49,272 nt of DNA from Rotaria socialis (Eukaryota), in NCBI GenBank assembly GCA_905331485.1, contig CAJNYT010000219.1:1-49272 (forward strand), read 5' to 3'. The notes under the pieces are model-generated. The model did not search any database. It was not told the DNA's origin and saw nothing but the letters and a program-made list of their open reading frames with translations. Positions 4,280 through 30,061 of the stretch are shown here, piece after piece. Both the position numbers and the translations under genes were made by a program. The stretch's first letter is position 1. The number at the start of each line of letters is the position of its first letter.

Positions 4280-5362
4280 TCAAATTGATCTATCTATTAC
4301 TTGGTTGTTTCTTGGGCCTGTACCTATCAGCACCACAGGAATGCCTGTTTCACGTTCCATCATTTCTATATACTGCTTGGATTTTTCTGAAAGCTGATCA
4401 TATTGTGTGATACCAGCATCATCATAGTTGATATACTGTATGAAGTTAACTGCCAATTTGTTAACACCTGTCAGTTTCACTGCACGTTTGATACGATTCA
4501 CATCAATTTCAAATACCCGTCGTAATTTCTTAGTAACAGTTGTTAATTCTTTCGAAGAAAATGTCCCAATAGGGGCACCTGCTCGTTGTTCTACTTCTTC
4601 CCATGTGATTTCTTTTCCACCATCCCCTGAATATGCTTCACCTCCATCAGATTTAGCCATGTCATTAGAAATACGAATTGGATATGTACGAATGACACCA
4701 TAGATATCTCGAATATGTTTCGGAGGAATACCGTTATCTGAAAGTCCTTGCATTGGTGAACATTCTCTGCTGGTACAATGTGGATATTGAAAACCATGAT
4801 TAATACCTAATTCAAAACCTTGTGCTATTTCTAAAATACCTGTTTTTCCTTGTTCCAAATCATCGCAAGCCATTTCAGCTGTGTCTGCCAAAAAATTCGA
4901 CCACTCTCGAATGTCATGCATTAATTTATGATCTGGATGCCGCATTACTTTGAATGCACTAGCTGCACCAACACCTTTAAATGTACTTCCAGAGCGTATA
5001 TTCTCCTTTTCCCAATCACGATGTGTTTGTTGGATAACCGATGCTCTTGGATGAATAAAAAGACGGCCTTTTGCTTTTTCTTTGCCGCCAAGATACTGAT
5101 CAACTTCATTTTCAAGCTGTACCAAATCGATAACAGCGCCAGCACCTATATATAATTTCGTACTATCATTAATTAACGCTTGTGGCAACTGTTGGAAAAC
5201 ATATTTGGTGCCATCTTGTTTTATTACCGTATGACCTGCTTGTACACCATAGCTTTCAATAGCAAAATCATATTTGTGCTTTGTAGCTAAATATCCACCA
5301 ATAAGTCCTTTCCCGCACGATCCAAAGCAGAGATCAAGAATAATATCCAACGATCGTTCCAT
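4280..5362 (-). CDS. Short-form adenylosuccinate synthetase family protein (archaeal PurA / PurZ-type length), 360 aa, single exon
   Basis: Colinear with PurA throughout: 'QAGHTV' matches the NAGHT His motif, 'KGVGAASAF' the GTTGRGIGP region, 'LEIAQGFELGINHGFQYPHCTS' the EGAQG..DHGTYPYVTSS block, and the C-terminal 'EYDKLTEKGKAFI..ERVGVPV.IISTGP' of archaeal PurA aligns with 'QYDQLSEKSKQYIEMMERETGIPVVLIGTGP'. At 360 aa it has the archaeal/PurZ size, not the ~450 aa eukaryotic size. The N-terminal P-loop reads 'FGSCGKGL' where the canonical sequence is 'WGDEGKGK'. A true ATG (cat on the plus strand at 5360-5362) starts the ORF, and it has no intron. Confidence 0.8.
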   Translation of the reverse strand: MERSLDIILDLCFGSCGKGLIGGYLATKHKYDFAIESYGVQAGHTVIKQDGTKYVFQQLPQALINDSTKLYIGAGAVIDLVQLENEVDQYLGGKEKAKGRLFIHPRASVIQQTHRDWEKENIRSGSTFKGVGAASAFKVMRHPDHKLMHDIREWSNFLADTAEMACDDLEQGKTGILEIAQGFELGINHGFQYPHCTSRECSPMQGLSDNGIPPKHIRDIYGVIRTYPIRISNDMAKSDGGEAYSGDGGKEITWEEVEQRAGAPIGTFSSKELTTVTKKLRRVFEIDVNRIKRAVKLTGVNKLAVNFIQYINYDDAGITQYDQLSEKSKQYIEMMERETGIPVVLIGTGPRNNQVIDRSI

Positions 5363-6863
5363 CTGAATGCGTACCTAAAGTTGAACAAATATACATCATA
5401 TCATATAACAACAGCTATAGTGTTATTATGTGTGTACAATTGTTCTAAATAACAACGTATGATACAATACGAATGAATTCAAGTCGTAACCATTTTTCAT
5501 TATACAAAGCATTGATTGAGAGCTCTCATGTTAGTCATTTAAAAGTATCCAATTTAAAAAATAATGGTCTAAGATGATTACAAGGTAACTAAACAGATCT
5601 ATGTTTTTCTATAGGTTTCATAGGGCCTATTAGGATCTGCTAGAATCAAGCAGAGTCTAAAGGCTCGATTAAACTTCATAGAATCAACTAGCGCCCTCAT
5701 TATATGGATTCTATCTGAGGCTTTCGTGATCCCCTCACCCTAGAGATAATATATGTTGTCTTCTCTTCCATCCTCGTTCTGAAGAGTATTACAGACTCTA
5801 GCAAACCCTGTTAGATCCTGGGGGGGGGGACTATTATGACTTATTACATAAATTATATAGAATAGAATTGTTATGGAGTTTATTTGTGCCATTCAGTGAA
5901 AACCAATCTAGAAGCTAATCCCATACGTCACAGCCATCTCATCAGTTTTAATCCAAACAGAAATAAAGCTAAGACGACGAATAATATGAAAACCACAAAG
6001 CTATTTGCATGTAAATATATTACTTTAGAAGCAGTCTCGCGCTTCCCATCTCTACTATGTTTAAAATTATGATATCATCTTTCCGCTGAAAGTTGTTTTG
6101 CAGATTTTTATTGATGCATTTCAAGCAAAAGAAACATTTTTTTTAAAAAGGAATACAAACTGGGTACTATGAAAAGAAAAGTAATCCTACATTTTCTTGT
6201 TATTTCTCGTAAATTCGTTTTGATAACTAGTGTTTTGTCTTCACCTAGCTTGTATCTTTGCTAGACGTTGACATACCTCTTCGTTTGTTCTTTCGGTAGG
6301 AAGCACCTTTATATATATATATAAGTCGATATCTTGGAAATTTTCAGTATATCTACAAAACAAGGGAAAAAATCATGGCTATAATATGGATGGTATTGGC
6401 CAGCCCAGTGCTGGATCAATGTTTATTTATTTTATTTCTTTATGTCACTCTCATCATAATCAATTAGGTATCCGTATCACCAATATCAGTAACTTTATTT
6501 TTATATTTAATTAGACGGGCAATTTTCTTACTCATCGCATTTACCTATTCTTTTTCTTCTTCTCCATTAATAGACAAATATACTATATGTCTTTTACTTT
6601 TACTGACCGAAAACACAACACATGTAACATATGTTATTCGATGTCTATACAGATAATGAGGATAGAAATGCAAAAAAAAGAGAAAGAATTGGGGAATATA
6701 TGCTATCAATTGGGACACTTTCTCTTCTTTTCTCTAGTATATGTGTCTATTAATGGAGAACAAGAAAAATAATAGGTAAATACGATGAGTAAGAAAGTTG
6801 CACCATCATATTAAATAAGAACAAGAAAATTACTGATATAAGCGATACGGACATTTTATCACT

Positions 6864-7575: not shown

Positions 7576-9954
7576 TTAGACTTCTTTAAATAATATTCCG
7601 TAGGGTCGAACATTCTGTGAATTGTTACACGTCCATATATCTCGATTGTGCTTTGCGATCGAACTATTATTAATTCTCACTTGAAACATAACTTGCAATT
7701 GTCGGCCATTGTATGGTGTTGGCCTAGAGTAGTGTCTACTCCCGGAATATGATGGATTAGGCGATAAATATATGCCTCGACCATGAGCAGAACCATTAAC
7801 AATAGGTATCCCATTACTACCTCCAGCAATTAAACCATTACGTAGTATAGCTAAAGCATTGGCAGTTGCAGTACCATGATAAGCTACAGGCCATGCATCT
7901 TTGCCCTCCGCTAGCCATTCAGCATTTTCATATTTTCCAAGTACTTTAATAGCCTTTCTATACCATCCGCATGGCCTTGTATAAGGTTCTGGTCCACGTT
8001 GAAAAGTTCGACCGGCATCATTTCTTGTTGTAAAATCGTAGTCGTAAGTGCTATCAAGAAACTCTTCATCTAGCATAACACGATTTACAAAACGATTAGT
8101 CCGAGCAGTAGCACTTGAAAAATGTGGAATATAAGCTGCAATTGAACTCTGATTGTATTGATAAAATCGAACGTTTTGATCATCTTCCCATCGATTTATA
8201 TCATTATCAATATTCCAATAACTTAATCGAATACTTTCAGGACATGTATATTCAGATGGTTCATTTATTATTAATAGTGGACAATGCTCTTTTTTATCAC
8301 TAAATTGAATATGATCAGCTTTGAAATGAATAACTGATATAATTCGATTATAATTTTCTTCTAATGTTCCTTTGTCCGGTACATAATCTTCGTTTTTCCA
8401 TACAGTATTTGGTAAGGATTTACTTACTACGGACTTTGATTCTGATTCTTGTGCTATTTTATATTCCATTATTCGAGAAGAATAATACATAACAGCATTA
8501 CTTTCATACATATCAGCCTTTTCACACTGAGGACACTTTATTTTTACAGTAGAATTAGACTCTTGTTTAATGGTTGATGTTAGTTTATCATTTAATCTTT
8601 TACAGCACTGGTAACAAAATAAAGCTGAACAATTTGGATTAAGACATAATCTATGTTTTTCAGGTATTAAACGACAATATAAACATTCTAAAGCCGAAGT
8701 TCCTTCCATTTCAAATTTATCAATAATTTTTGATTTACGGTATTCTGATAATCGAACTTTCTTGTAACATGTTGGACAATGATGTTCATGATTTGTATTA
8801 TCACAACTGGATTCAATACAAATGCGACAAAATACTTGTGTACAATATGGGCATTCTAAATTATCATCATTAAGTTGTGATAAACAATTTAGACATTCAG
8901 GTTTATCTATGAAAATTAATGAAGATGTTGACGGTTTATTAATTAAAGTAGCTGAATTAAAATCCGTTTCAACTGCTTGTGCTAAATTAGTTTCATTGGA
9001 TGGCGTTTCTTTTTTTGAGGATATAATTGGATTTGACTGAGTAGGATTTATTTTCTTAATGTTAACTTTATCAATCTGATTATTCAATTCATTGATTTTT
9101 GTTGATATCTTCATCCAATTGCATGATGATTTTAAATTATCGATCAAGAAATCGTTGCTCCCAATAGAAATTGTTGTTGATTTTTTATTTCCAATTGTTT
9201 GTTTTGCTTGCTGGGCGGATTTAATCACATTGATGGTCTCAACTGGAAACATTAAAATAATTGTATTATTATCCAATCGAGCTTCACATTCATAATTTAT
9301 TATAGCAAATTTATCCTTATTGATGTCTGAAACTTTTTGACAGCGATCACTAGGTTGGACTGCATTAATCTGAGATGACCCTATATCTCCGTCGACGATA
9401 GTATCAGGCTGAATATTAAATTTTAATTGAACAATAGAACCAGGATTAATTCCTAAATCCAACATTGGAATATATGCATTTTTATTTAATGAGTAATATT
9501 TTCCATTAGCCATAATTCCTTGCGCATAGCGACCGTCGCAACATCTTACTTTACAAAATTGAGATAACAATAAACGATCATAGGGTAATGCTATTAATAA
9601 TGGATAATCATATATTTGGACTGATTTGAACATGGCCGTTTTTATTAATTTAATATGTGACACGTCAGCATTAGCTGAAATGAATATTTTTTCTAGTAAT
9701 TCAAAGTAATTTTCTACATTCATTGTAATTTTTTCTGATAAATGATTAGTTTGAATCATTTTACCAATATGTTGACATAATTTATTATATCTGAGTGGAT
9801 GAATTAATTGGGACGAAGGAATAATTCCCATTTTAATTTCAGTTATTGGCCAATATCTGAGATCTTGATCTTTACTAACAGCGCTAATAGGTTTATTATA
9901 ATCAGAATTTTCACTTTCTAATTGATTAGTGTTATCGGCAATTAAATGAAACAT
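7576..9954 (-). CDS. Large (792 aa) protein with several Cys-rich zinc-finger clusters (RING/IBR/B-box-like) and a C-terminal PARP-type (H-Y) ADP-ribosyltransferase-fold segment
   Basis: Cys clusters 'CLNCLSQLNDDNLECPYCTQVFCRICIESSCDNTNHEHHCPTC', 'CLYCRLIPEKHRLCLNPNCSALFCYQCC' and 'CPQCEK'. The C-terminal 'WPVAYHGTATANALAILRNGL...GSAHGRGIYLS' matches the PARP H-G-S/T ... IL..GF ... G-x-G-I-Y-F pattern. The ORF stops before the third catalytic position of the ART triad. True ATG start. Confidence 0.6.
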   Translation of the reverse strand: MFHLIADNTNQLESENSDYNKPISAVSKDQDLRYWPITEIKMGIIPSSQLIHPLRYNKLCQHIGKMIQTNHLSEKITMNVENYFELLEKIFISANADVSHIKLIKTAMFKSVQIYDYPLLIALPYDRLLLSQFCKVRCCDGRYAQGIMANGKYYSLNKNAYIPMLDLGINPGSIVQLKFNIQPDTIVDGDIGSSQINAVQPSDRCQKVSDINKDKFAIINYECEARLDNNTIILMFPVETINVIKSAQQAKQTIGNKKSTTISIGSNDFLIDNLKSSCNWMKISTKINELNNQIDKVNIKKINPTQSNPIISSKKETPSNETNLAQAVETDFNSATLINKPSTSSLIFIDKPECLNCLSQLNDDNLECPYCTQVFCRICIESSCDNTNHEHHCPTCYKKVRLSEYRKSKIIDKFEMEGTSALECLYCRLIPEKHRLCLNPNCSALFCYQCCKRLNDKLTSTIKQESNSTVKIKCPQCEKADMYESNAVMYYSSRIMEYKIAQESESKSVVSKSLPNTVWKNEDYVPDKGTLEENYNRIISVIHFKADHIQFSDKKEHCPLLIINEPSEYTCPESIRLSYWNIDNDINRWEDDQNVRFYQYNQSSIAAYIPHFSSATARTNRFVNRVMLDEEFLDSTYDYDFTTRNDAGRTFQRGPEPYTRPCGWYRKAIKVLGKYENAEWLAEGKDAWPVAYHGTATANALAILRNGLIAGGSNGIPIVNGSAHGRGIYLSPNPSYSGSRHYSRPTPYNGRQLQVMFQVRINNSSIAKHNRDIWTCNNSQNVRPYGILFKEV

Positions 9955-10016
9955 AATTAATTGTAAAACTGAAATGGACTCATTTTCTGATAATAGTGTT
10001 TTTGATTCTTTACGTT

Positions 10017-10688
10017 CTAATAATAATAATCGGATTTATGAATAATTAATAATCGAAATGGTGGTAATGCAACACGATTTAATCGAAAAGAAAGTTTTAA
10101 AATTTCTTCGTATAATTCTTTTGCTTCATTTTCTAATGAAATCATTATATTTTCATATACTAATACATAATCAGCAAGATCAACAGGTATTGTGTCAATG
10201 TTATCACTATATAGTATAGTGGATAATATCAGATGAGCTGCACCAATAGTCATAGATTTCGGCAACCAAATCGATTTTAATTGACTATTTTTTGTTGTAG
10301 AAGATAATGAATTTAATGATTTAACTGAATAAATTTCATATTTAACCATACCAGCATCAGTGGTCTGATTTATATTATTAACAGTAATAAAATTACTAAA
10401 AGTTGTATAGAGATCATTGACAAATTCGTGTAAGATTGGATTGCCTTTTAAGTCTAAGACTTTTGTTTGTGCTTGTTGTTGAGATTTCTCAATTGTTTCT
10501 TTAACTATTTTACCGTGATCTTTTGATGAAAATGAATTAAAACAATACTTTTCACTTTCAAATAATGCTTTTAATATATTGACAGTTGTTGGGGTGTCAT
10601 AGATAATATTACTTATTGTGTTGTTTCGGTTATTCGCATTAAGATCATTAGTATCGCTTTGATTGGGAACAGTGGAGGAATTACCCAT
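10017..10688 (-). CDS. 223-aa ORF with an MGNSS N-terminus (N-myristoylation-type motif); unknown function, possibly a separate upstream gene or 5' partner of the 7576..9954 gene
   Basis: Uninterrupted ORF on the same strand immediately upstream of the 792-aa ORF. True ATG start. No recognisable domain. I could not find a usable donor that joins it in frame to the downstream ORF. Confidence 0.35.
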   Translation of the reverse strand: MGNSSTVPNQSDTNDLNANNRNNTISNIIYDTPTTVNILKALFESEKYCFNSFSSKDHGKIVKETIEKSQQQAQTKVLDLKGNPILHEFVNDLYTTFSNFITVNNINQTTDAGMVKYEIYSVKSLNSLSSTTKNSQLKSIWLPKSMTIGAAHLILSTILYSDNIDTIPVDLADYVLVYENIMISLENEAKELYEEILKLSFRLNRVALPPFRLLIIHKSDYYY

Positions 10689-11451
10689 TTTTTATTCGTT
10701 CGTAGGCAGAAAATCTGAAATTGTAGTCAAACTATAAAAGTAATACTAACATCGGATTAACTATAAAAATTTTGTGCTAATGATTCGAACAGAAACTCTT
10801 CTAATCGTCGTCCTTCTTCTATCTTAAGAAATTAAAAGACAAAAAGACCGCTTGATAACAGATAAAGAAGAATATTAAAATAAATAGAAGGATGTTTTCA
10901 TATTATCTAATCATTGCTGCTAGATCCTAATAGATATATTTGGCATTTGAATAGATAATTTTAACTTGTGTTCAATATCATATAACACTGTTGTATGGAA
11001 AAAATTTTTATTGCCAACGAAAAATCGTCAACCCACTTGTTTGAACAAGAATTTAAATATTTCAATTTTTTATTGTAGTGTTTTTTATGGGTCACCCTGT
11101 ATATAAACGAAACGAAAAGAAAAATGTAATATGAATCATTACTAACAACAAGAGACATGAAGAGAAACTCAAGGACACGCATATATAGTGAAATCTATAA
11201 TAAAGAAAGTACCAATAGTCTCCTCTGAACACAGTACAGATCATAACTATCTAATATAGATGAATAAATTATGAATATATCAGTGGCTGGCATGTGTAAG
11301 ATTTGCATAACTTGATGCAACCTAATTCACATATTCTTCAGTTCTATCTGAGTCGATTGAATGTAAAAGCTTTTCAGAATAAAGTAAAAATCATGCCAAC
11401 TTTAAAAAATTATTTCCTATGTAATGTTAACTGGCTGTCTCTTGTTTCAGC

Positions 11452-11508
11452 GGATGTGGATGTGTGTGCGCTATCTTTAACCCAGCCTACGCCCACACCC
11501 ACACACCC
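11452..11508. repeat. Degenerate inverted telomeric-repeat module
   Basis: ggatgtggatgtgtgtgcg ... cgcccacacccacacaccc. Confidence 0.6.
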
Positions 11509-11542
11509 TTATGATACTTGACGTCTCTTATTGATCCTTGTA

Positions 11543-12551
11543 TTAGAGATCTGAGCTACGTAAACTCCAGAGTTTAATTATCCATTTGTTTGCGATTTCA
11601 TCAAAGTGGCACGATGTTACCTTAGCAGGAAAACCATCGAAAATCAAAAGTTCTTGTTCATCCGGATAATTTGAATATGGGGACATATCCAGAGAGCCGG
11701 TATCTTTTTCGAGGTCAATGACAAAAAGAAAGTTGCTGCCAAAGAATTCGGCCACGTTCGGATTAAGAGTAGTTGAGGTAAACGCCGGTAATTGGATTTT
11801 TCTTTCAGAGACAACGCATAGTCGAAATTGTTCAATTTGTTCGTTAGTCATCGTTGCTCCTCGATATACTATCATATTAGTGGGAGTAAAATTCATAGCT
11901 GAATTCAATAGTACAGCAAATGGGCCGTTTGGCCATCCATTCACCTTCTCGTTGCTTCCCCACCTTTTTCGCTTCGATTATAAATCCTTCCGCTGCCTTT
12001 TCTATCCACATCTCAAGTACTGACTGACAAGTGATACCTTTCTCCCAACCAACGCCGTAATGAGAACAAGCTTCTTGAACAAAATCAGGAGTTGTTGGTT
12101 CAATTTGCCAGTTTATGAAACTGTTCGAAGGCAAAACTGAATCTTCCAAGAAACGTTCCGCTCTTACTCGTTTCTCTCGTTCATCCTTGTTACGATCAAC
12201 TATACGTTTCACTGGCCGTTGTTTCTTTTCGTCATTATTAGAGATTTGCATAGAACGTGCAAAAACGATATGATAGTCGTCGAGAAGAGCTTCTGGTAAG
12301 CCTTGTTGGAATGCTTCTTCGATGATTTCAGTTTCTACATCGGTGTATTTTCGCCATTCAGCAGGTTCTGCAAAACAGAAAGGAAGCGCATTAGATTGCC
12401 ACAGCCACTCTATATACTGCTTGGCAATCAATGCAGTAGTAGTCATATACGCAACGACCAAACGGTAGCAGTAAAGATTAGATGTGATAGTAAAAAGAAA
12501 GAAAATGAAAGATATATTTCGTTTCATTATTGACTCTTTTTGTTGTTCCAT
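11543..12551 (-). CDS. Secreted R-S-E clade mono-ADP-ribosyltransferase (arginine-specific type), two exons (12551..~11945 and ~11898..11543), ~320 aa
   Basis: The 224-aa ORF has a signal-peptide-like N-terminus (MKRNISFIFFLFTITSNLYC) and the helical N-domain. The 133-aa ORF carries the catalytic triad: 'VYRG' (R), 'FTSTT' (S-T-T) and 'DEQELLIFDG' ([Q/E]-x-E). The two ORFs overlap in different frames. A 46-nt segment with a GTGAAT donor and a TTCAG acceptor removes the overlap and joins the frames exactly (...KQRE-A-MNFTPTNMIVYRG...). The second ORF's 'M' is GTG, which is consistent with it being internal to an exon. Confidence 0.75.
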
Positions 12552-12797
12552 TCTGTGGCTGGAAGAAAGAAAAAAAAGAAAGGAAATGAAAGGAAATGAA
12601 AGGAAAGAAAAGAAGGAGACAATGTTGGTTAACTTCTGTTATGACACGTCTATAAGCTGTGTCATAAGATGAAAGGTATCACCCAAATATCTTGAGGATG
12701 TGTATAGTAAACAGAGACGTGCACAGGATATAATTTTTTCTCCTGCTCTTGCCTGTCCTGTTACCTACCTTGGTTCTGGTGGGCGGCAGGACAGGAG

Positions 12798-12867
12798 AGG
12801 GTGTGGGTGTGGGGTGTGTAGAGGTGGATGTGTGAGGTGATGCTTCTCTTCACTCACACTCACACCC
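12798..12867. repeat. Inverted telomeric-repeat module
   Basis: gggtgtgggtgtggggtgtgtagaggtggatgtgtgaggtg ... cactcacactcacaccc. Confidence 0.8.
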
Positions 12868-13387
12868 TAAAAATGGAAAGAAAACAAAAACGTATGACGA
12901 AAAAGCAGTAGGTCTCATTAAGTTTTGAGTCTCGATATATCTATAACAAAGGTTGAAGAGGAGCTGGCCATGCAATTTTGGCAGAGAAAAATTTGCTGTA
13001 TCAAACGAAATATTATTCAAAAAGGTTCTGATAGCTTACTACAAAAAACATAACTAAATACTAACTTAACCAATTTTCTATAAAAAAAAGTCGTTTTATT
13101 GAACTGTTGAGTGCGCATTGTTTTTTATTTTGCCATAACTGACGACCTGTAGATCCTTACATGTTGAGGGCGTATTCAATGCGTACTTCATAACATTTTA
13201 GCAGTGACCTAGAGTAAGCTAAATATTTGGATTTGTAGGTTTTTTTATCTTGCTCTTTCATTTCCTATCACAAAGTATAGCGTCTAAAATTTTTGGAAGT
13301 GCGATCCTGTGAAAAAAGATTCGATTTTCTCACGGAGCGTCTCTGAATTCACACTATTAAAATTCAGTATTTAGCGGGTGACTAAGG

Positions 13388-13510
13388 ATGTGGGGAGTGT
13401 GGTGTGGGTGTGGGTGGGTGTGGGTGTGAGTGTGTGTGAATCGCCAAACAAAACACCTATAGGGCACCCACACCAGCACCAACTCACGCCCATACACCAA
13501 CACCCACACC
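13388..13510. repeat. Inverted telomeric-repeat module (long and degenerate), abutting a TIR element
   Basis: G-strand 13388-13438 (gtgggtgtgggtgggtgtgggtgtgagtgtgtgtg), C-strand 13466-13510 (cacccacaccagcacc...cacccacacc). Confidence 0.8.
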
Positions 13511-13516
13511 AGAGAC

Positions 13517-14460
13517 CGTCACAGGGCAGGGCAAAAGTTTTTGCCCTGCGCCCTGATAATTTTTCCTATAAACTGATATACAGCATATTTTTCAGTAGAT
13601 TATGCTGACATGGTGATGGATTATAATGTATGTCATTATGCGCCAGTCACTGTGAAATTTGTTACTATGTCTAGTTCGGACAATACCAGTTTACTCATTT
13701 ATTATCATATAATTCAATTATAAAAATAAAATACTGCTTCTAAGAGAAATGCAAAACATGGTAGAATCATTTAATATTGTATAAGAGAACGAGCTAATTT
13801 AAGAATTATGTGTATGATGAGCTTTTTTTCTAAATGATTTCAGACATGAGCTTAGTATTCCAGAGGAAATTTCACTTGAAGATTCAACATGTTCTAATGG
13901 TAACTTTCTTCGCATGTTTTAGTTTTGTATGCTTAGTTCTCTATGTTTTAAATTATTTTCACTTGATATGAACTCGCCCGGTTTTACAAAATTAGAAGAT
14001 CTCTTATTTCATGATAAATCTTACCGCCCCATAATACACAATGAATCTCTTGCTACTGGTACATTTTGAAGAGTCTTTATTTACCCAGCACGATGAGTTG
14101 AGGAGAATACATGTGAAAGATTTACTTGATTTCTCACTTATTCAAATTATGTACATATTCAATCGCCAGATCACGATAAGCGCATTATTTTTGCAGTGAA
14201 CTGATTTTTGTGATAATCTTAATTGCTGTTTGCTACTCATACTTAATTATGTTTTCAGCGCATATCTATATTTTCTCGAATATAGATAAATAAAAATACG
14301 AGTACTTTACTTTTCAGCGGTTACAACATTTTCATTTAGTCTTTACCTTTTTCAATATTTCAGTTCAATTTATAATCACGCCCTGTCCTGCCCTGAGACA
14401 GGGCAGGATATAGCAGGGCGCAGGGCAGGACAGGGCAAAAAGTTGCCCTGTGACGATCTC
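13517..14460. mobile_element. TIR-bounded element (~940 bp) with GC-rich palindromic termini (CGTCACAGGGCA...GCCCTGCGCCCTG), flanked on both sides by telomeric repeats
   Basis: Left 'cgtcacagggcagggcaaaagtttttgccctgcgccctg' (13521-13559); the reverse complement of the right end (14395-14458) is 'cgtcacagggcaactttttgccctgtcctgccctgcgccctg'. No ORF. Confidence 0.6.
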
Positions 14461-14475
14461 TGATCCACACCCAGC

Positions 14476-14545
14476 TTTTGTTAAATTATTTATTAAATGC
14501 CAAGATTTATTTTTTCTGATCGATAGAATGGTATTTGTGTATTGA
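14476..14545. repeat. Dispersed ~70-bp repeat; second copy at 619-690
   Basis: 'gcttttgttaaattatttattaaatgccaagatttatttt(t)ctgatcgatagaatg' at both sites. At 14475 the homology starts exactly after a CACACCCA telomeric tract. Confidence 0.75.
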
Positions 14546-17500
14546 ATGAGAAGGGAAATGAAAATTTTTCACTTCTATAAAAACATAGTTGTAAAATATT
14601 TTAACAGTTAAAATAAATATTAAATTCGATTTTACTCATCAATTAATTGAAATTAATAGTTTAGAAAAATCTATTCTATTATGAGCAGAAATTATCAAAG
14701 GTTAAATGAATTTACATAGTACAGAACAAAAATATATGAATCGTTACTATTGCGATGTAATCGAACAAATGCTTCGAGTGCTAGAGGCATCATTATATAT
14801 TGAACTATGTAGAAGTTTATTAATAATAATCTATGAAACTCATTTAGTCTCGGAATATTATCTTCGTAGACATTGAAATTTTGTAAAAATACAATTTTAG
14901 TTTTAGTTTTCTATCATTTGAAATAGGAAATGACTTTTATTGTAATTAAGAAAGCAGTAAAATATCTTATCATCGAAGTCATCCATGATATCTAAGTGAA
15001 ATTATTAGAGATAATCAAGTTGATTTGTTCCGAATTTCATTTCAACACGTTTTGTATTCGTTTTCAATTGTATTTAATAACTGATAAACATGGTCAAGTA
15101 TTATTCAAATATGAATAATTCTGTTGTATTTAAACATAAAGATTTCGATTGAACATACGAAGAGAAACTTTCATTGCTAATGAAAAATATTGAATAATCA
15201 TTGAGACATTTGAACGACTTGTCTTCGCTTTTAAGAATGACGCCAAAATATAAACCTATTTTAATTAGTTCGACACACAGCTATTTAGTCACGCTCGATT
15301 AAATATATATAATTATTTACTTGTAAACAAATTATTTTTTAAAAAATAATTGTATATTTAAATGGCAAATATATTTACAAAAAAAAGTGTTGCTTGAAGT
15401 TCACTGTGATAATGGTTGTGGTTTACTTGTCAATGAAAATTGTCGAGAAAATCTTTTGTTTTTTTTCTTTATTGAATAATCTTTCTCTTCATTTTTGTTA
15501 ATTAGTCAATACATTTATTAAATTATATTCGAACTCATTATTATTTGTCATCATCAATAAAAAATGGATTTATGTTTAATAAATAGTGGAGAACCATTGC
15601 ATCTTTCATCATCTGATACAAAAATTATTTCATCAGGAAGATATTGTTTTCCGTCTCTTTTTCATTGAAGATCTGGATGCATGATATTCACCTCACACAT
15701 TCTACTCTTGTCTTAGTGCATGGGAAAAGACACATATATTTTTGTTGAACAGAAATCTTATTTTCAATCTTTTTTATTTGCTTAGTTTAACAGCTTTGGT
15801 GTGAATGAGAGATGAGCACAATATGCTCTCCCATCCACACGTTTGCCTTCGAGCTATTTTTAATTATTTGTCTCTAGAATAATGATAAAATTGTTAAACT
15901 TGAAAAAAAATCATTCATAAATATGAAATATCTAATAACTTATCAATATATATTCGAGTTTTATGATAGCACATCAATATGCGTATAAAATTCTCCATAG
16001 GTGCACACTTATCAATAAGGAAATGGATGATCTTAACCATTCTATCGTTTCTAGTACTATAATGGGCCACTTCTACAGTTCGATATATCAAAAATTAATA
16101 GATTACATCTACATTGAAAATATCTGGTAAATAGTTTCATCGGATTAATTCACCTATATATTTCTTTTTTTCTATAAGGAATCTTTTTGTTAACATAATT
16201 GATTATCAATGATCGGCTATCATTTAGACGATGTCCGTCAAGCATTGTATAAGTATACGTCTATTCTATTATCCGATAGACACATTATATCGACAATGAA
16301 TTCTTTATCAGGTATGAGTATGTGTAGCTCTTTGATAATATCATTTATTTGTATTATTCTTCTGTACAGAAGACTCCATGCAGCTGGTCGATTTACTTGA
16401 TGAGTTAATTTTAATTATCATGTACAAAGTGAAACCTAAAGTGTTATTGCTTTGTTCTACTATCACTATTGATAATAATCGTTTAGCAAAACTTGCACTT
16501 GATATGTATCATTCAATTGATTTAACTTTTAAGTATTTTCAATCACCATATCAATTTATTATTCCACGTTTTTACACACATTTTATGCCTTGTATCATTA
16601 ATAATATTCAACTTACACATTAGGTAAACTATGATTAACTATCGCTTTAGTTCATTTTCTACTTATAAAATAAGATAAATTCTTATTTTTTCAGAATTAA
16701 AAAAAAAGAACTCTACTTTAAATATAGAAGATTCAAGTGGCTTTTTAGGAACATTTAAGCAGAAAAGATGTGAGACTTTTTTAAGTATTCATTGCGATAA
16801 AAACTTTATGATCAAAATTGTGTTCCTTAAAAATCTTATATTTCGATCATAATACATTTAAAAAGAAGGAACCATTAGATGATATGCTAGTCTACTAGCC
16901 TCCTATCTCTGACCAGAATATGAGCTTTAAACATTATAATAACCTGGTTGATTCTTCTTCTCCTTAGATATTCCTAAAAAACAACTCGAATCTTCTGTAT
17001 TTCGAGTGGAAGTCGACAAAAACCTTTTCCAAAAAAATGGTTGAATACCGATGATTTTACCCTTCTGATAAAATCTATACTTAGGAAAACATTGATATTT
17101 GTATATATTATTAGGCAATAACCTTTACTGTGTTTCGCGGTGTTTTACTCTCTTCTCAAATATACCTCAATTTTCTGTACGTACTGGATAAGAGCAATAC
17201 TGCTCGCACTTGATCTAAATTCTTTTGTTCACTATCTGTGTCTTCTATTGTATCTTTCGAATTGGATGATGATTGTATTTTAAAAAATATATTTTAAAAT
17301 GGCGATGATTTAATTTTTCCTGAATCAATCCATCTGACTCTTATTCGAATAATATTATTTGAATTCGAACGTTGCATTTTTTTACTTAATCAATTGGGCT
17401 CATAATTATGTTCATTCGTTGTAAGTGTGTGGTGTTTGTTTCTGCATCAGATGTTGGTATTTTTTCTAAAATTAAATCAGTAAGCAATATTTAGTAATTG

Positions 17501-17899
17501 CAAATCTCATTTAATTAATTCATAAAGATTTCATGTCCTAATTTGAAACGATTGGCAATGAAAATTTGTTTCTTCCTGTTTTACAATGTTGATCAAATTT
17601 CGAATATTTAATATTATTATTAGCTATTGAATTCAAAAGAAATACACCCAAACGTTTTATTGATGGATTTGATTTGGATAAACACATTATTTTATGCATG
17701 CCTCATTTATGTCAATTTCATATTCGTTCAATATTACCAAATGCTGCTCATGTAGAAATCGAGAATGAACTTGAGCGACAAGAAAAAATAGAAACGACAA
17801 CAAATAATCTTGAATTTACTCATTTAACTACTCTGATTTTATTTGATATTCATTTGGATTATGCTGAACAATTACTTTGTCGAAGCCATTTTCCTTCTC

Positions 17900-18720
17900 T
17901 TATTGTGCAGCGGTAGGCTTTTCATTTAAGGAAATGTGCTCCAACCGCATTAGACCATCCATACGTATAGGCTTCTGTTTTTGTTTACTTTCAATACAAA
18001 CGCCATTAGCTACAGTACGAAATAGCTGCGTAATATCTTTATTTGGCTTTGCTATGTGTTTCAATAGATGTTTGGCGAATAATCCATTTCTATCAGTAGT
18101 ATCACCATCAGAGGCAATTTGATTTGGGCTACATGCAAAGACGACGTAGCTGCCATCCGGTACTTCCATTGCATGTAAACTAATACCTTCGAGCTTCGCT
18201 AAAACAACGATACGTGATACATCTTATACGGCACAATTTTGACTAGTTTTTGCTACCAACCGTTTCTTTGCCTTTTGTTTTTTGGATAGTGTACTCGACA
18301 ACAATCTAGTATAAATACCGTCACAAAGGATGGATTTTTTTGTCTTAATTGATGAAGAGTGCGTTCGGCACAAGTACAATAATCCTCAACATCTTCATCA
18401 GATTTAATTAAATCATCATCTACGTGAGCCAAATATGTTCTGCCATTAACGTGATAGCCATGGCCAGAAAAGTAGAACATAACCAAATCGCCGTCAACGA
18501 TTGTCTCAGCAAAAGCGGATATTGTAGAGGCCATTTGTGACTTTGTAAGATCACGTGCCGTTTTTACCTGAAATTTAATATTTCGTAGCACGTTACTAAG
18601 ATCATTAGCATCATTGATACAATGACGAAGTCTATCTTCAGATTGAATATAATTCTGGTTTCCGATAACTAATGCTATTTTACGGCGAGGCCTTGAGGCA
18701 GTAGAATTCAGAGTAGCCAT
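17900..18720 (-). CDS. Caspase-family (peptidase C14-like) protein: p20-like part (18253..18720) plus p10-like part (17900..18169), split by a short intron or frameshift
   Basis: 'KIALVIGNQNY...CINDANDL...FQV', 'FYFSGHGY' (catalytic His-Gly) and 'ILDCCR' (catalytic Cys, D-x-C-R type) sit in the first ORF. 'GSYVVFACSPNQIASDG...NGLFAKHL' in the second ORF is the typical small-subunit motif. The open frame upstream of the second ORF extends to '...RIVVLAKLEGISLHAMEV'. A candidate 62-nt intron (weak GTTGGT donor, TTGTTTTAG acceptor) would join the two parts. Confidence 0.6.
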
Positions 18721-18889
18721 GAGAATTATTTTTTTCTAAAAGAAAATAACTCAGTTAAATTACACGGCTGATAAGTATCGGACACTCAGGATACTTTAAT
18801 AAATAGACTGCAGATAGATTTTTGATGTATTTTAACTTTGTATCTGTGTGATACACTTACATATTGTATTGTTCTCTTAGAACGGTTCT

Positions 18890-19480
18890 CAATAGCATAT
18901 GAGCGCATGCGGTAAGTCTTTTTCCTGAAAAACTCTTCCACTCATTCTCTGCAAATGGCACTTGTACTTTTCCGCGGCACAATCAAACACATCATTTAGT
19001 ACGAGCAATGTCGTAATCAGTTTTCCTTCCCGTTTCGCCATATTTCAGTCCATGAGCATCGCGAAAAATAAAGTACGCTGAAGGATGGACTAGTAGACGT
19101 TTTGATTGTAAACGATCAGTATTATTCATGTATAGAAAACGATTTTAGAGAATATTAATTATGCTGAATATTTACTTATAAACAATCAAAAGCACAACGA
19201 AACCTTGTCAAACCGTTTTCTATACATGAATAATACTGATCGTTTACAATCAAAACGTATAATAGTCCATCCTTCAGCGTACTCTATTTTTCGCGATGCT
19301 CATCGACTGAAATATGGTGAAACTGGAAGGAAAACGGATTCCGACATTGAAACATGTAAATGGAATAATATGTTTTTGAACGCTGCTCGTGCTAAATGAT
19401 GCGTTTGATTGTGCCACTGAAAACTACAAGCGTCAATTGCAGAGAATGAGTCGAAGAGTTTTTCAGAAAAAAGGCTTACC
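18890..19480. repeat. ~590-bp foldback palindrome (arms ~255 bp, loop 19142-19212)
   Basis: 19041-19141 is the reverse complement of 19213-19312 with near-perfect identity. The outer arms still match ('agagaatgagtggaagagtttttcaggaaaaag' at 18925 versus 19441). The ORFs 19205..19399 and 19300..19482 are mirror-image artefacts. Confidence 0.8.
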
Positions 19481-20126
19481 ATATACGCTCATATGCTGCT
19501 GAGAAGCATGCAAAATACAAGGAGGCCTATTATTTTTGTCTGTCCATTATAAGAGTGATTTATAAGCAGCTACGTAAAGAACATGATATATTTTTTCACC
19601 TTAGGCAAATATTAGTTTTGGCTCATGACGCGAACTTTCGAAATGTTTTATTAATATTTCACAATACGTATTTTTGATGACGTCATTACTCTGAATAACA
19701 GATGAGATATGTTTTAATCACAGTCAAGTTATTAGAATTTTCAACGTTGTTTTAACAAAAAATACGTCTAAGTGATATAGGTAAAGTTAGCACCAAATTC
19801 GGTTATTTTTTGTCCGGATTAGCTCAAGAACGTGCGTTCGATGTAAAATTAAATTCTACGTCGAATTGCATTATTTTCAATAGTGGTCATCGAGCAAGAA
19901 AAGGGGCTCAGGATGAAATACTAGAGTTCGGGTGCACGATACCATAATCTTGATAGGCATTATTGAAGTTGGTCAAAAGATTTCAATCGCCACATAGGGT
20001 TGGACCGTTTGTTAGCTATAATATGTATAGAATGAAAGAAAGATATAAGGAATGAAAGAGGGATATATAGAGAGTGAAAGAGACAAGCAGTGTCACTGAT
20101 GTTATGTGACAGAACGAAGAAAAATA

Positions 20127-20198
20127 TGACCTTCATGGAGATCGAACCCATACCTTCTGCTATCCAGGCAGATGTCCTACCAGTTAGACTAGAAGAAC
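20127..20198 (-). tRNA. tRNA-like Pol III element (72 nt cloverleaf with A and B boxes); aberrant anticodon loop, so a tRNA pseudogene or SINE head is possible
   Basis: Minus strand: acceptor GTTCTTC/GAAGGTC (one mismatch), D-arm GTCT-AACTGGTA-GGAC, anticodon stem TCTGC/GCAGA with loop CTGGATA (anticodon GGA, but position 37 is T), T-arm ATGGG-TTCGATC-TCCAT, discriminator A, then a T5 terminator. Confidence 0.35.
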
Positions 20199-21252
20199 GT
20201 ATTAATCTTCGTTTAGCGTTATTGTGATCCGTCACTAACGCTATCACCGTTGATTTTAATTTGAGTTAATTAAGAGAGTTAATTAAGTGGTTTTACTTAA
20301 CACTTAATATTACATTAACGTAAACTGACACCCCTATAGCCACGTGACAGACGAGATCCTTCTTCATAGGAGAGCAAATCTAGCTGACAAGAAATTGAAT
20401 CAATAGCACACGAAATTAGCTTTATTCTCGACTCGAATGACTCGATCAACACTACTGTTTTAACGAGGAGCACCTTTTATGGCAAGACTATCATGATATT
20501 GTTTCAGAACAACAAATTTGGCCAGTAAGTGATACAAAAATTGAACTAACATGGCAGAAGTAGCTGTTCCCGTCTCTTGAATATAGGATGAGATGATAGC
20601 TACACTGTAAAAAAAAGAGGGTTTATGAAAGTGCAACGTGACACATACCCTTTTTTCCGTTTTTGAAATATCTGATAAACCCCTTTTCCAAATCATAAAC
20701 CTAAAAACTGTTTATTATCTTCGTCATATGCGGAAAAAAAGTTTATGACACGTTGCACTTTCATAAACCCCTTTTATTGGGTGCGGGTGTGTAAGAAACT
20801 ACCACGACGCTTTTCGACTGATGCTTAGTCAGTCTCATCAGGTGACTTAGTGTCTCTAGTTCGATTCAAAAAAATTTGAACAAAAAAATTCAAAATCAAT
20901 TCGAGAATATTATTCTGCTCTAATTCACGATGAAGTAGAATGGTAATATCTTGATGGTGTGGGTGTGTATTAAGTTTAGAAATTAACTACAACTAGTTTC
21001 GATTTTTCTGATGGGTCTTCATCAGATGGTTTAAGCGCTGTATAAGATATCAAATTGAAAGGAAAATTTCAAAAAAAAAATTCCTGGAACTTTTAATATC
21101 AAAGCAAAGAAGAGAATTCTCAACACTTAGTACAATGCTTGATCCAAAGATCATTGCAAAATACTTAGAAGAACTAAAAGTGTACGCGGAAGTGAAATTT
21201 TTAGCTAAAATAGACAAGCGAGTGTGAGAAGAATAATCATAGTAAATTTTGA

Positions 21253-21304
21253 GGATGTGGGTGTAAGCAATCTTTGTATTAACAATCCCACTCACACCCA
21301 CACT
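21253..21304. repeat. Inverted telomeric-repeat module; isolated G-tracts also lie at 20771-20790 and 20941-20958
   Basis: gatgtgggtgta ... cactcacacccacac. Confidence 0.6.
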
Positions 21305-21699
21305 TTACAGTATCTGAGCTTTGGATGAACCCATTTTCTGACTAATGGAAGATCGGATAGGAAAAATGACGGTGGATTCGGGTTCCTGGATCTCCATGAC
21401 CTATTGCAAATTTTGATAGTTTCGAAGAATCTGTTTCGCGTCTTGGTGTAAGCGTGTGTCTCTTCACGACATAGAGCATCTGTGAAACCCGTAAGAAACA
21501 TGAAGGAATACAAGCATAGTTTTTCATAAAAATTTAGCGTTAAATGCTGATGTGGTTTGTATTAGGTTTGATACAGGAGCATTGACTATGTACAGGAAAT
21601 GTAGAGATGGTGATCGGATCCTATTGAAAACTGATCGAAAACGATAGTAGGAAAGTATATTGATTCCGACTTTTGAATCCGTTGTCGGATTCTGTATAG

Positions 21700-22010
21700 A
21701 ATTGATCGAGCTGATGAGTTGTAGTCATTAGAAACAATCGATTGTTAATCAAACAATTCGATTGTAAAATATTTGGATTTCAATCGGTAGAGAAGATTTT
21801 AATCGATTGTAAAATTAAAATCAGTTTCAACTGCTGTAATTAGAAATAACCGATTGATAATCTATCAATTTGATTTTCCAAGATTGAAATTTCAATTGAT
21901 TGGGAAGATTTCAATCAATTGTTCGATTAAAATCAGAGTTTAAGGGGTAAAATCATCAATAATTGATAGAATAGATTAAAACTTGAATCAATTGCTGGAT
22001 TTTAGTCGGA
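21700..22010. repeat. Satellite-like low-complexity block built from CAATCGATTG / TTGATTGAAA-type units
   Basis: Repeated 'caatcgattg', 'aatcaattg', 'gattgaaat' and 'ttcaatcg' motifs over about 300 bp. Confidence 0.55.
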
Positions 22011-22256
22011 TTAATTATATTACAAAAAGAGGTAGTTTGGTTCGAGAAATCGGATTTGGTCAACCATAATTAAACATAATCACGATTTTATGAGGGATAT
22101 TTTTCACTGGAAAGTAATAACAAACAAACAAACAACAAATAAGTAAATACAATGATCGAAAAGAAAGAAAACATGAAAGAGTTACACATAACGACGATAA
22201 AGATAGATGCTGTAACTTGAAAAAGGTATAGACATATTCGTCAATTGATTAAAAGA

Positions 22257-22940
22257 TACCCTAGACAAACATCTTGTAAGCAAGATCTTGGTCAAGATAC
22301 AAGGTACAGATATGTTAACAGATCTTGGAAATTCAGGTACAAGATAACTGTATTATCTTGTACCCAAGATCTAATTACAGATCTTACATAAGAATTCATT
22401 AAATCTTGGATGCACACTAAAATAATACCTGCTGCATTCTTTTATATTTTTTCAATATATTTTCATTTTAATTATTCCTCTTCCGAATTCCAGCAAGTCA
22501 GATGTTGCGATCTGACTGGCTATAAATTGGTCTGATATCCGCCGGACCAATTAGGGAAGTCCTCTCTCGATCATCGATCGAGATCAGCATTCTCTCGAAT
22601 AATCGAGAAATAGTTGAGAAAAAAAATTTTGAAAATTTGTATTTTGTATGTTCAACCATGCTGTTTATATACAGCTGTGTATCCATTTTAAAACGGTGAA
22701 TGACTAGAGAGCATGTAAATACACTAATGATGTCGCTTTCTGTTTCGCTCAAGATCTTATCGGAAGATAATAGTACACGATATTTTTTCCATGATCTTGA
22801 CAAGTTCTTAAGTACAGATTTATCCGATACAACCAAGATATGTACATGCAAATTATCTTTTTAAGACCTTAATAAGATCTTACTTACCGATCCCAAGATT
22901 CCCAGATCTTGCTTACAAGATGTTCGACTAGGGTAGACCA
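22257..22940. mobile_element. TIR-bounded non-autonomous element (~680 bp) with ~35-bp terminal inverted repeats and multiple subterminal AAGATCT motifs
   Basis: Left end 'taccctagacaaacatcttgtaagcaagatcttgg'; the reverse complement of the right end is 'taccctagtcgaacatcttgtaagcaagatctgg'. The internal 117-aa ORF (22498..22851) has no recognisable domain. Confidence 0.65.
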
Positions 22941-28478: not shown

Positions 28479-30061
28479 TTATTCTGCTAGTTCTGCTTCT
28501 ATAAGACGAACACAATGACTAAGTCCATCTTCATTTTTAATTAATTCGCTAATCTTTTTAGCACTGGTTTTATAAATGTTATAATTGTCAATCATAAGAT
28601 CACGAATTGCATTAGTTAAATTCTTCACATTGGTGTGACGTATGGAAATAGATCTTGGTCCTAATCTATTGATAAATATTCGATCACCGTTAAATGGTTG
28701 ATCGGCTCCAAAAGATAATACTAATGTAGGCAATCCATACCAAAGACTTGCATGTGTAGTACCGGCACCACCATGATGAATTGTTGCTGACATATAAATA
28801 AATAACCAAGAATGTGGAATGGCATGTGTCAAATAAAATATATTATCAGCTGTGGATAACGTACTGGCATCTGCGCTTTTAAATCCAACTAATGACATAA
28901 CTGCTTTACAATTATTTCTATCAAGAGCCAATAAAATTTTGCGTATAAATTCCATTTGTTCATCTGCTCCAAACATGGTACCCATCATTGATCCAAGACC
29001 AACATAGATAATCTTCTCGTTTTTCCATTTGGTCAAGAAGTCAAGAATAGGAGTTGGCGGTTGAAAATTCTCATTTTCTTTTTCAAGTATTGGACCGACC
29101 ATATGATCATTTTCGTGCCAATCGGATGGACATGGTATTAAATATTTGGAATAGATCGTTGCAGATACCAATGGCTTACGAAACAGGGATTGAGTCATAC
29201 GTTCATAATTTAATTTCATTGGTGGTAAATCATTAGTGGCACGAAGTTCATTGAGTTTATCATTATAGATGCTTGACATAGCATAGTCGACTATTTTCCA
29301 TTTCAATAAATTGGTCCACTTGAACAAACTACCACTTTTCCCACCTAAACCAGGCGGCGAAAAATGAACTGTTCGTATCACTGGGAATGTGTAGATTCCA
29401 ATTGCTTTAATATTAGGAAATTTCTCAATACAACTTAATCCAGGGAAAATAGATGCAACTGTTAGAACAATTAAATCAGCGTCTTTTACACCAGACAGAA
29501 TTCCATTAAACCATTCTTCAATCGCTGGTTGAAATATACGTTTTACTAATCCCATTTTTAAAATACTTGGATTCCGTCGGAGCTCGATTCCTTCTGGGCT
29601 TGTCGATAAAAAATGTTCTAGGTCACCACCGATTTCAACTACATCGAAACCTGAATAAACAAATAGAAGGTGATATCATGGAAATATTAATGAAAGAACT
29701 CTTCAATATTAGATTTAGATTTATATTGTGCGATGATACAATGATAATATGGGAAAGTATCAAGCGATTGTTGGATTTAAGATTGATAGTACTTACCAGC
29801 AGCTTTTACTATGTCTTGATAACGTCGATGTACACCAAGCCATACGATATGTCCACGTTTTTTAAGTTCTTCGGCAAGTATCATAAAAGGTTTCACATCT
29901 CCTAGAGTGCCAGTCGCCGGAATAAAAATCTTTTTAACTCTAGTATTCTTGCTACTGTCATTAATTTCTTTGGCAATCGAGCTTTCTTCCTGGCTTTCCA
30001 AGTCCATGAGATGTGAATCTTCACTTATATTTCTAAAATTGAAATCAATAATGTGTTTCAT
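28479..30061 (-). CDS. GT1-family UDP-glycosyltransferase (sterol 3-beta-glucosyltransferase / macrolide-GT type), two exons (30061..29797 and 29650..28479), ~480 aa
   Basis: Exon 1 'KKIFIPATGTLGDVKPFMILAEELKKRGHIVWLGVHRRYQDIVKAAG' is the GT-B N-terminal signature. Exon 2 carries 'HHGGAGTT' and 'GLPTLVLSFGADQPFNGDRI' (C-terminal UDP-sugar motif). A GTAAGT donor at 29796 and a TTATTCAG acceptor at 29651 give a 146-nt intron. That joins the frames exactly: ...VKAAG|FDVVEIGGDLEHF..., matching the UGT51-type 'GLEFFPIGGDP'. There is no GRAM/PH N-terminus. The track start at 30079 is TTG; the first ATG is at 30061. Confidence 0.8.

Follow-up and report, generated by a model that had tools for sequence, protein, structure and literature searches.

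A 46-nucleotide "intron" in a Rotaria socialis ADP-ribosyltransferase locus probably bridges a frameshifting deletion in a disabled copy of an intronless gene

In the bdelloid rotifer Rotaria socialis, a 49,272-nt stretch of contig CAJNYT010000219.1 (assembly GCA_905331485.1; hereafter, the window) carries two overlapping open reading frames (ORFs) that together resemble an ADP-ribosyltransferase (ART). The question raised by this locus is whether they are exons separated by a very short spliceosomal intron, as proposed by an earlier note on this DNA, or the two parts of a broken gene. According to our analysis, the locus is very probably a pseudogene: a copy, recently disabled by a deletion, of an intronless gene encoding a protein with a WWE and an ART domain (WWE-ART). 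The window is AT-rich, sparse in ORFs, and eukaryotic in appearance, and its closest protein matches come from R. socialis and Rotaria magnacalcarata, both bdelloids.

The two minus-strand ORFs, ORF1 and ORF2 (Table 1), overlap at 11877-11944 in different frames. Excision of 46 nt from 11944 to 11899 (GTGAATGG...GAATTCAG; in full, on the minus strand, GTGAATGGATGGCCAAACGGCCCATTTGCTGTACTATTGAATTCAG) leaves 607 + 356 nt, which encode 320 aa with a single terminal stop, and we could verify the coordinates and the frame of this join as the earlier note had described them. The 320-aa product matches the Pfam families ADPrib_exo_Tox (PF03496, 39.6 bits) and ART (PF01129, 26.3 bits) above their cut-offs over residues ~207-316, and the catalytic motifs R, S-T-T, and E-Q-E are found as VYRG, FTSTT, and EQELL. 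That the ORFs represent two halves of one gene is confirmed by intact homologues, in which both halves lie in a single ORF.

The orthologue of R. magnacalcarata (P0002, 354 aa) is one uninterrupted ORF of 1065 nt in three assemblies. Its synteny with the window is evident from the PARP-domain gene downstream, which both share at 97.6% identity. Intact 354-aa copies were also identified in R. socialis (P0082, P0083, and P0091), with a 1065-nt ORF and no intron at each of the loci L017 and L018, and the assembly GCA_905331015.1 holds both a deleted locus (L009) and an intact one (L018, encoding P0091). When aligned at the DNA level with the orthologue and with the R. socialis sister copy, the window gene is missing 161 nt, corresponding to nt 524-684 of the intact coding sequence (CDS), codons 175-228; since 161 equals 3 × 53 + 2, the frame shifts. 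The deleted segment starts with the same GGC that is found at the junction, a microhomology of 3 nt because of which the exact breakpoint is ambiguous within 11923-11927. Reading from the normal start, a premature TAA is reached 15 codons past the junction, and the tail PICCTIEFSYEFYSH that ORF1 encodes there has no counterpart in any homologue. Outside the gap, the 904-nt gene shows 98.0% identity with L001 (2671-3735), the R. magnacalcarata orthologue, and 97.9-98.1% with the intact copies at L017 and L018 (8001-9065) of R. socialis. DNA alignment revealed the 161-nt gap relative to the orthologue in the window and in three further R. socialis loci (L004, L007, and L008); L005 and L009 align to the window without that gap, i.e., they carry the same deletion, and the gene range in L006 is 904 nt, equal in length to the deleted copies. 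Hence, the copy in the window bears a disabling lesion with respect to an intact orthologue, and the same genome has an intact counterpart. A frameshifted pseudogene, which the earlier note had named as its own alternative, is the better-supported reading.

The relationship between the deleted and the intact R. socialis copies could be traced through their flanks and substitutions. The intact locus and the window share an upstream flank of ~7.8 kb with 99.6% identity, differ at 17 to 19 of 904 sites in the gene body, and have unrelated downstream flanks. The deleted copy and the intact copy of R. socialis form a group on the basis of two shared derived sites, nt 158 and nt 725, and the deleted copy has since collected 12 private substitutions, among them G at CDS nt 397 and T at nt 877, versus ~3 on the intact branch (P=0.035). 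P0004 and P0005, which were considered as a possible second intact copy, were rejected and served as the outgroup only, as they represent a 5'-truncated, frameshifted fragment in which S-T-S has changed to S-R-S/T in both Rotaria species. This fragment (185 aa, annotated as arginine ADP-ribosyltransferase; L010, ~5670-6558, and L014, ~4580-5466) is without a WWE domain, carries frameshifts and stops common to both Rotaria species, and is flanked by CCGG-rich and GTGTGGG-like repeats.

The consequences of the deletion for the ART domain were evaluated on an alignment of 56 full-length family members (P0002 numbering). The residues R249, S278, and E317 are invariant, E319 is nearly so, and the motifs VYRG, FTSTT, and EQELL of the window align with R249, S278, and E317/E319, respectively. 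The deletion takes out the most conserved helical block of the family, which includes the invariant R209, fifteen residues conserved at 90% or more (L175, C190, L193, Y194, S198, F199, L200, Y201, N205, M208, L210, W220, K223, T226, and G228), and the motif LYxxLNxxMRL, common to the bacterial effector HopU1. The alignment with HopU1 starts within this block (LYkklnevmRl in the family, LYREVNNYLRL in HopU1). In iota, C2, and C3-type toxins, the corresponding Y-x-x-x-N helix helps to form the pocket for nicotinamide adenine dinucleotide (NAD). Correspondingly, the PF01129 match spans profile positions 47-215 in the intact P0002 (37.1 bits) versus 126-218 in the window product, whose ART domain is incomplete in that it lacks the full N-terminal helical subdomain before beta-1. 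In the AlphaFold (AF2) model of P0002, with a predicted local distance difference test score (pLDDT) of 90.8 and a predicted template modeling score (pTM) of 0.89, five helices precede the first catalytic strand (165-176, 183-195, 199-209, 214-222, and 224-235), of which the deletion wholly removes the three central ones and clips the two others. The spliced 285-aa product, modeled with the same alignment depth, reaches a pLDDT of 80.0 and a pTM of 0.60, with 49-76 in the junction region, a drop in model quality that is supportive only since AlphaFold does not predict stability. We infer that the deleted copy has lost its ART activity.

With the intact genes at hand, the origin of the 46-nt segment itself becomes apparent, as it is made up of the coding sequence that flanks the deletion on either side. 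In the intact genes, (G)EWMAKR is encoded by its 5' part (11944-11925) and GPFAVLLNS by its 3' part (11926-11899); GEWMAKR and GPFAVLLNSAMNF, read in two frames in or beside the segment, are contiguous coding sequence in P0002, P0082, P0083, and P0091. The 46 nt are identical to the matching sequence of R. magnacalcarata, and therefore there is no sign of splice signals improving after the deletion. The segment has GT...AG boundaries and a length compatible with the host, as nearby annotated introns measure 58 and 62 nt where uniquely resolved and 47-70 nt in unresolved solutions. Its GC content is 46%, versus 28% (58 nt) and 35% (62 nt) in the uniquely resolved neighbors, a small set known from annotation only, and 20-32% in the other plausible solutions for neighboring introns. 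No polypyrimidine tract is present ahead of its AG, where the sequence reads ...CTATTGAATTCAG. Furthermore, the orthologue (L001 to L003), the sister copy (L017 and L018), and distant paralogues (L019 to L021; P0007, P0003, and P0022) are all single-exon genes. The proposal of a 46-nt spliceosomal intron does not withstand this comparison, given the intronless orthologue, sister, and paralogues and the ancestral coding sequence astride the deletion.

The exactness of the join, which had made the intron attractive, was assessed by simulation. Deletions of 161 nt, or of random lengths not divisible by three, were placed at random sites in the intact CDS, and any GT..AG segment of 35-100 nt restoring a stop-free ORF was counted as a success. 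Success was recorded for 96-99% of the simulated out-of-frame deletions (median, 9-12 solutions), and the real locus offers 14 GT..AG bridging options. Since bridging is nearly always possible by chance, the exact join has no evidential weight. The deposited gene models illustrate this freedom. The R. socialis model P0094 (CAF3338420.1, 285 aa) equals the 46-nt-spliced product from M36, so that the earlier note arrived independently at an existing automated model, save for its N-terminal extension; P0001, found on eight other R. socialis contigs with the same DNA, uses the 76-nt segment listed in Table 1; and a third solution annotates two separate genes, P0087 (189 aa) and P0093 (102 aa). Identical DNA has thus received three mutually incompatible models, for which the predicted junction peptides of the spliced versions are KQREAMNFTPTNMIVYR or KQREVYR. 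BRAKER 2.1.2 and one and the same published set of transcriptome sequencing (RNA-seq) data served to annotate all R. socialis assemblies (Nowell et al. 2021, PMC7943196), so that, judging from the discordant models, a consistent junction hint was apparently missing from those data. Neither the 224-aa ORF nor the 285-aa model is on record in the assembly collection, Logan run assemblies included, and every member of the two 90% clusters derives from NCBI genome annotations and none from transcript assemblies; both results are no evidence either way on splicing. On the whole, GTGAAT...TTCAG would be a frame-bridging artefact of chance rather than an intron, and it is predicted not to be spliced in vivo.

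The N-terminal part of the product was described in the earlier note as a signal peptide plus N-domain of a secreted protein. Here, instead, the N-domain is identified as a WWE domain, and the family profile matches the WWE domains of Deltex, TRIP12, HUWE1, and RNF146 in the Protein Data Bank (PDB). WWE domains are readers of ADP-ribose inside the cell. Every homologue and every deposited model begins at M36 or the matching methionine, immediately ahead of the WWE domain, and the hydrophobic stretch lies upstream of M36. In three distant paralogues, the frame is closed by a stop 0, 21, or 30 codons upstream, without an intervening ATG, and therefore the family is without a signal peptide. Only in the lineage of the window gene is the upstream frame open, over 58-121 codons of T/C-rich sequence in which stops seldom occur, and the M1-Y35 extension differs between copies at three sites, all of them non-synonymous. 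The extension is most likely 5' untranslated region (UTR), although it does contain a hydrophobic core, ISFIFFLFTIT (Kyte-Doolittle 2.39), so that translation from M1 is conceivable. In addition, no hydrophobic tail of the glycosylphosphatidylinositol (GPI) type was found at the C-terminus (...LWSLRSSDL). Both the family start at M36 and the upstream stops of the paralogues speak against secretion.

Several observations weigh against a simple pseudogene and have to be set against the alternatives. The donor AAG/GTGAAT is a reasonable 5' splice site, at 46 nt the segment is close in length to introns annotated nearby (58 and 62 nt; one unresolved solution gives 47 nt), and in most assemblies BRAKER, supplied with RNA-seq hints, predicted an intron at this place. 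None of the catalytic R, S-T-T, and E-Q-E residues has been lost. The substitutions on the deleted-copy branch number 5 non-synonymous to 7 synonymous (P=0.011 versus neutral), a test on only 12 substitutions that is underpowered, cannot separate those before the deletion from those after it, and does not date the deletion; downstream of the lesion the ratio is 1:4 (P=0.015). The bias toward synonymous changes indicates that the ART part was under purifying selection for most of the separate branch of the deleted copy. This would be explained by a recent deletion or, less probably, by ongoing translation of the part downstream of it. The latter is what would be expected of a genuine newborn intron, in which GTGAAT/TTCAG came into use after the deletion, with 46 or 76 nt removed, and a 285-aa WWE-ART (320 aa if the upstream ATG were used) was retained by selection. 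The exactly restored frame, the acceptable donor, the intact motifs, and the 1:4 ratio, which fits continued ART translation, could all be accommodated in this way. We nevertheless consider it unlikely, since bridging is expected by chance, predictors picked two acceptors, or none, on identical DNA, and the segment is ancestral coding sequence with coding-like composition that matches R. magnacalcarata exactly; moreover, its product is without the most conserved ART block (R209 and the LYxxLNxxMRL helix) and models poorly, and a transcript-derived ORF with either junction is not on record. An intron birth still in progress, with the 161-nt deletion rescued because GT and AG dinucleotides already present in the adjoining coding sequence came within splicing distance (46 nt), and the shortened WWE-ART still under selection, would explain the synonymous bias downstream of the lesion, and is deemed distinctly improbable.

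The locus might also make use of its unspliced product, a 189-aa protein (M36 to the TAA at 11877) comprising the WWE domain, the linker, and the first helices, which would either read ADP-ribose on its own or regulate the intact paralogue. Its WWE domain has remained intact, with a Pfam score that exceeds the cut-off, the deposited model P0087 equals this product, and the near-identity of the promoter-proximal ~7.8 kb to those of the intact copy makes transcription plausible. We regard such a neofunctionalized truncation as very improbable: selection for the truncated form left no sign, as the 5' part, with 4 non-synonymous (F25, R32, I82, and G133) to 3 synonymous changes on the deleted-copy branch, looks relaxed rather than constrained, and WWE-only fragments in the family list resemble other partial models. 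Besides, transcripts with a premature stop are often degraded. An artefact of assembly or sequencing, in which the gap was misassembled and the true gene is intact, is hardly conceivable. The arrangement of the region does differ among L004, L007, and the window, and an intact copy of 98% identity with a near-identical upstream flank could mislead assemblers. However, the same deletion recurs together with copy-specific substitutions on at least six contigs from different assemblies, including the GCA_9651203xx.2 versions, and the 12 private substitutions point to a distinct molecule rather than a collapsed read pile; on these grounds, an artefact was rejected as the cause of the deletion.

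A disabled gene copy thus remains our preferred explanation, and its history may be reconstructed as follows. The intact gene encodes an apparently intracellular protein of 354 aa with an N-terminal WWE domain and a C-terminal mono-ADP-ribosyltransferase domain of the R-S-E (HopU1/C3-like) type. A 161-bp deletion with 3-bp GGC microhomology, which fits end-joining or replication slippage as the putative mechanism, removed codons 175-228, with translation predicted to end 15 codons past the junction and the catalytic core stranded out of frame. The deleted copy would then yield at most a truncated, WWE-only peptide, the intact sister copy in the same genome presumably supplying the function, while gene predictors appear to have used several of the 14 frame-restoring GT..AG segments, inconsistently. 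The CAF3338420.1 (46-nt) and P0001-group (76-nt) models are probably frameshift-bridging artefacts, which should neither be cited for intron gain nor enter phylogenies as ART sequences. Had the earlier note been right, a toxin-like ART with a gained intron and a secretion signal would have been a case of foreign-gene domestication. The main value of the present analysis is corrective, as it concerns a broken copy of an intronless gene and its deposited models; at the same time, bdelloids carry a large and apparently undescribed family combining a WWE reader with a HopU1/C3-type, putatively arginine-specific ART writer.

Table 1. Features of the ART locus and of its surroundings in the window
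Feature	Position	Strand	Remarks
ORF1	11877..12551	minus	224 aa
ORF2	11543..11944	minus	133 aa, GTG start
Deletion-bearing WWE-ART copy	11543..12446	minus	M36 ATG (12446-12444) to stop after ...SSDL; 904 nt vs 1065 nt intact
Upstream in-frame extension MEQQKESIMKRNISFIFFLFTITSNLYCYRLVVAY	12447..12551	minus	T/C-rich tract, likely 5' UTR
WWE domain	12204..12407	minus	Pfam PF02825, 32.5 bits vs cut-off 21.1; residues 49-116 (320-aa numbering)
Proposed 46-nt intron GTGAAT...TTCAG	11899..11944	minus	Probable pseudo-intron; coding sequence from both sides of junction
Alternative 76-nt segment GTGAAT...TGATAG	11869..11944	minus	Probable pseudo-intron; P0001 model, junction KQRE/VYRG
Deletion junction	11923..11927	minus	CAAAC/GGC/CCATT; from DNA alignments
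ORF1 out-of-frame tail	11877..11924	minus	PICCTIEFSYEFYSH, then TAA 11879-11877
ART catalytic core remnant	11543..11926	minus	Out of frame with 5' part; keeps R, S-T-T, E-Q-E
VYRG (catalytic R)	11858-11869	minus	Motif present
FTSTT (S-T-T)	11768-11782	minus	Motif present
EQELL (E-Q-E)	11645-11659	minus	Motif present
CCCACA-type tract	11488..11509		Reverse complement of TGTGGG; just 3' of ART gene
GGTGTGGGTGTGGG tract	12796..12819		Just 5' of ART gene; inverted partner of 11488-11509
Adenylosuccinate synthetase gene, part	4280-5362	minus	
TPR-repeat ORF	25833-27707	plus	624 aa
EryCIII-like/UDP-glycosyltransferase ORF	28479-29555	minus	358 aa, bacterial-type Pfam PF06722
VIT+VWA ORF	35683-36711	plus	

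As for the surroundings, the ART gene is bracketed by tracts of the hexamer TGTGGG and its complement (Table 1), which recur upstream at 13389-13440 and 13463-13510. TGTGGG is the bdelloid telomeric hexamer (PMC7943196). The window contains 21 TGTGGG and 24 CCCACA, versus ~4.5 of each expected from its composition, which suggests a subtelomere-like region prone to rearrangement. Homology between the intact and deleted loci breaks near such tracts. Around the ART gene, different R. socialis assemblies show different arrangements (window ~10870-22927 compared with L004, L007, L017, and L018). Past the equivalent of window position 10870, L007 continues into the caspase region, inverted; L004 has an intact-type ART copy head-to-head ~1.2 kb upstream of the deleted copy, across a gap of Ns; and L017 and L018 have a caspase-side flank of 99.6% identity and differ from the window on the other side, which holds a 419-aa gene and a Radial_spoke gene. 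The ART region may have undergone an inverted duplication or may vary in structure between alleles. Beside the caspase-domain gene (18253-18720), nested imperfect inverted repeats occupy 18877-19514, with one pair of 140 nt (19006-19145 and 19210-19349, 94% complementary) inside another of 131 nt (18877-19007 and 19384-19514, 85% complementary), possibly a foldback element or one resembling a miniature inverted-repeat transposable element.

The PARP-domain neighbor (7576-10688, minus strand) is split in the window into ORFs of 223 and 792 aa, the latter with a PARP Pfam match of 30.1 bits. The same region is a single 3114-nt ORF (1037 aa) in L004 and is annotated with 1037 aa in L005, L006, and L009; the sole difference found between the window and L004 in this stretch is CC (window, ~10033) versus CCC. 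The gene is also split in L008, as in the window, and in R. magnacalcarata L001 (197 + 792 aa). The CC/CCC difference is either a sequencing error or a true frameshift polymorphism. Among the more distant genes, the glycosyltransferase ORF at 28479-29555 might have been acquired horizontally, judging from its bacterial-type Pfam match.

According to the UniProt automatic annotation, members of the WWE-ART family are named 'NAD(P)(+)--arginine ADP-ribosyltransferase', and arginine as the target residue is suggested by this name and by the E-x-E motif only. The family comprises 357 clusters of 50% identity at an expectation value (E) of ≤1e-30 and 1179 at E≤1e-10. Its named members are all bdelloids (Rotaria, Adineta, and Didymodactylos), those tested are all single-exon, and some matches have extra domains, such as the ubiquitin fusion in P0068. 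Scanning 185,579 bacterial and archaeal genomes with family-motif patterns, which are family-specific, returned 154 pattern matches and no confirmed relatives, a result that weakly disfavors a recent horizontal transfer from bacteria. In the searchable literature, we found no description of this family or of the combination of WWE with an R-S-E ART, and the single mention of a rotifer concerned PARG.

As regards comparable cases, the 46-nt segment does not differ in principle from the pseudo-introns known from automated models of pseudogenes, where a short GT..AG placed over a frameshift lesion likewise lets the ORF continue and where different runs choose different segments (here 46 nt, 76 nt, or none). 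For the ART domain, the assignment to the cholera-toxin/C3/ecto-ART (R-S-E) clade made in the earlier note is upheld by motifs, Pfam, and profile and fold matches. A closer likeness to vertebrate ecto-ARTs is not, since HopU1, Vis, and the C3 exoenzymes lead the solved relatives and no vertebrate ART appeared among the sequence matches at E≤0.1 or the 50 best fold matches. A family profile was required to reveal these relatives, as a PDB search with the spliced product alone gave only a marginal match to C2-I (E=0.82). The best solved relative by family profile (E=8.3e-10), and the second by fold (E=1.2e-8), is HopU1, the type III effector mono-ADP-ribosyltransferase of Pseudomonas syringae (PDB 3U0J), which has in common with the rotifer family the R / S-T-S / E-x-E core and the preceding helix motif LYxxxNxxxRL. 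However, HopU1 is a secreted bacterial effector without a WWE domain, and the copy in the window is without the helix block where the alignment with HopU1 starts. The top fold matches of the intact model are C3-type toxins (C3bot 1GZF, ExoS, Plx2A, Certhrax, and C2-I), with C3bot at a Foldseek E of 1e-8 and a template modeling score to the target of ~0.6, and the PF03496 match above cut-off agrees with this likeness; yet identity is 14-19%, and the rotifer proteins are eukaryotic, fused to WWE, and apparently intracellular. Vertebrate ART1-5 belong to the same R-S-E clade, and PF01129 passes its cut-off, but the rotifer family has neither a signal peptide nor a GPI-type C-terminus and carries the fused WWE. 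This domain is homologous to that of the WWE-PARPs and of E3 ligases (PARP11/12/13/14, RNF146, Deltex, HUWE1, and TRIP12). The WWE of RNF146, Deltex, HUWE1, and WWE-PARPs binds iso-ADP-ribose or poly(ADP-ribose), and the WWE-PARP architecture is that of an ADP-ribose reader fused to an ADP-ribose writer. The intact rotifer proteins share this arrangement, with the difference that the writer is of the H-Y-E PARP type in the WWE-PARPs and of the R-S-E C3/HopU1 type in rotifers, and by analogy this suggests that the intact WWE-ART may be an intracellular writer recruited to ADP-ribosylated targets.

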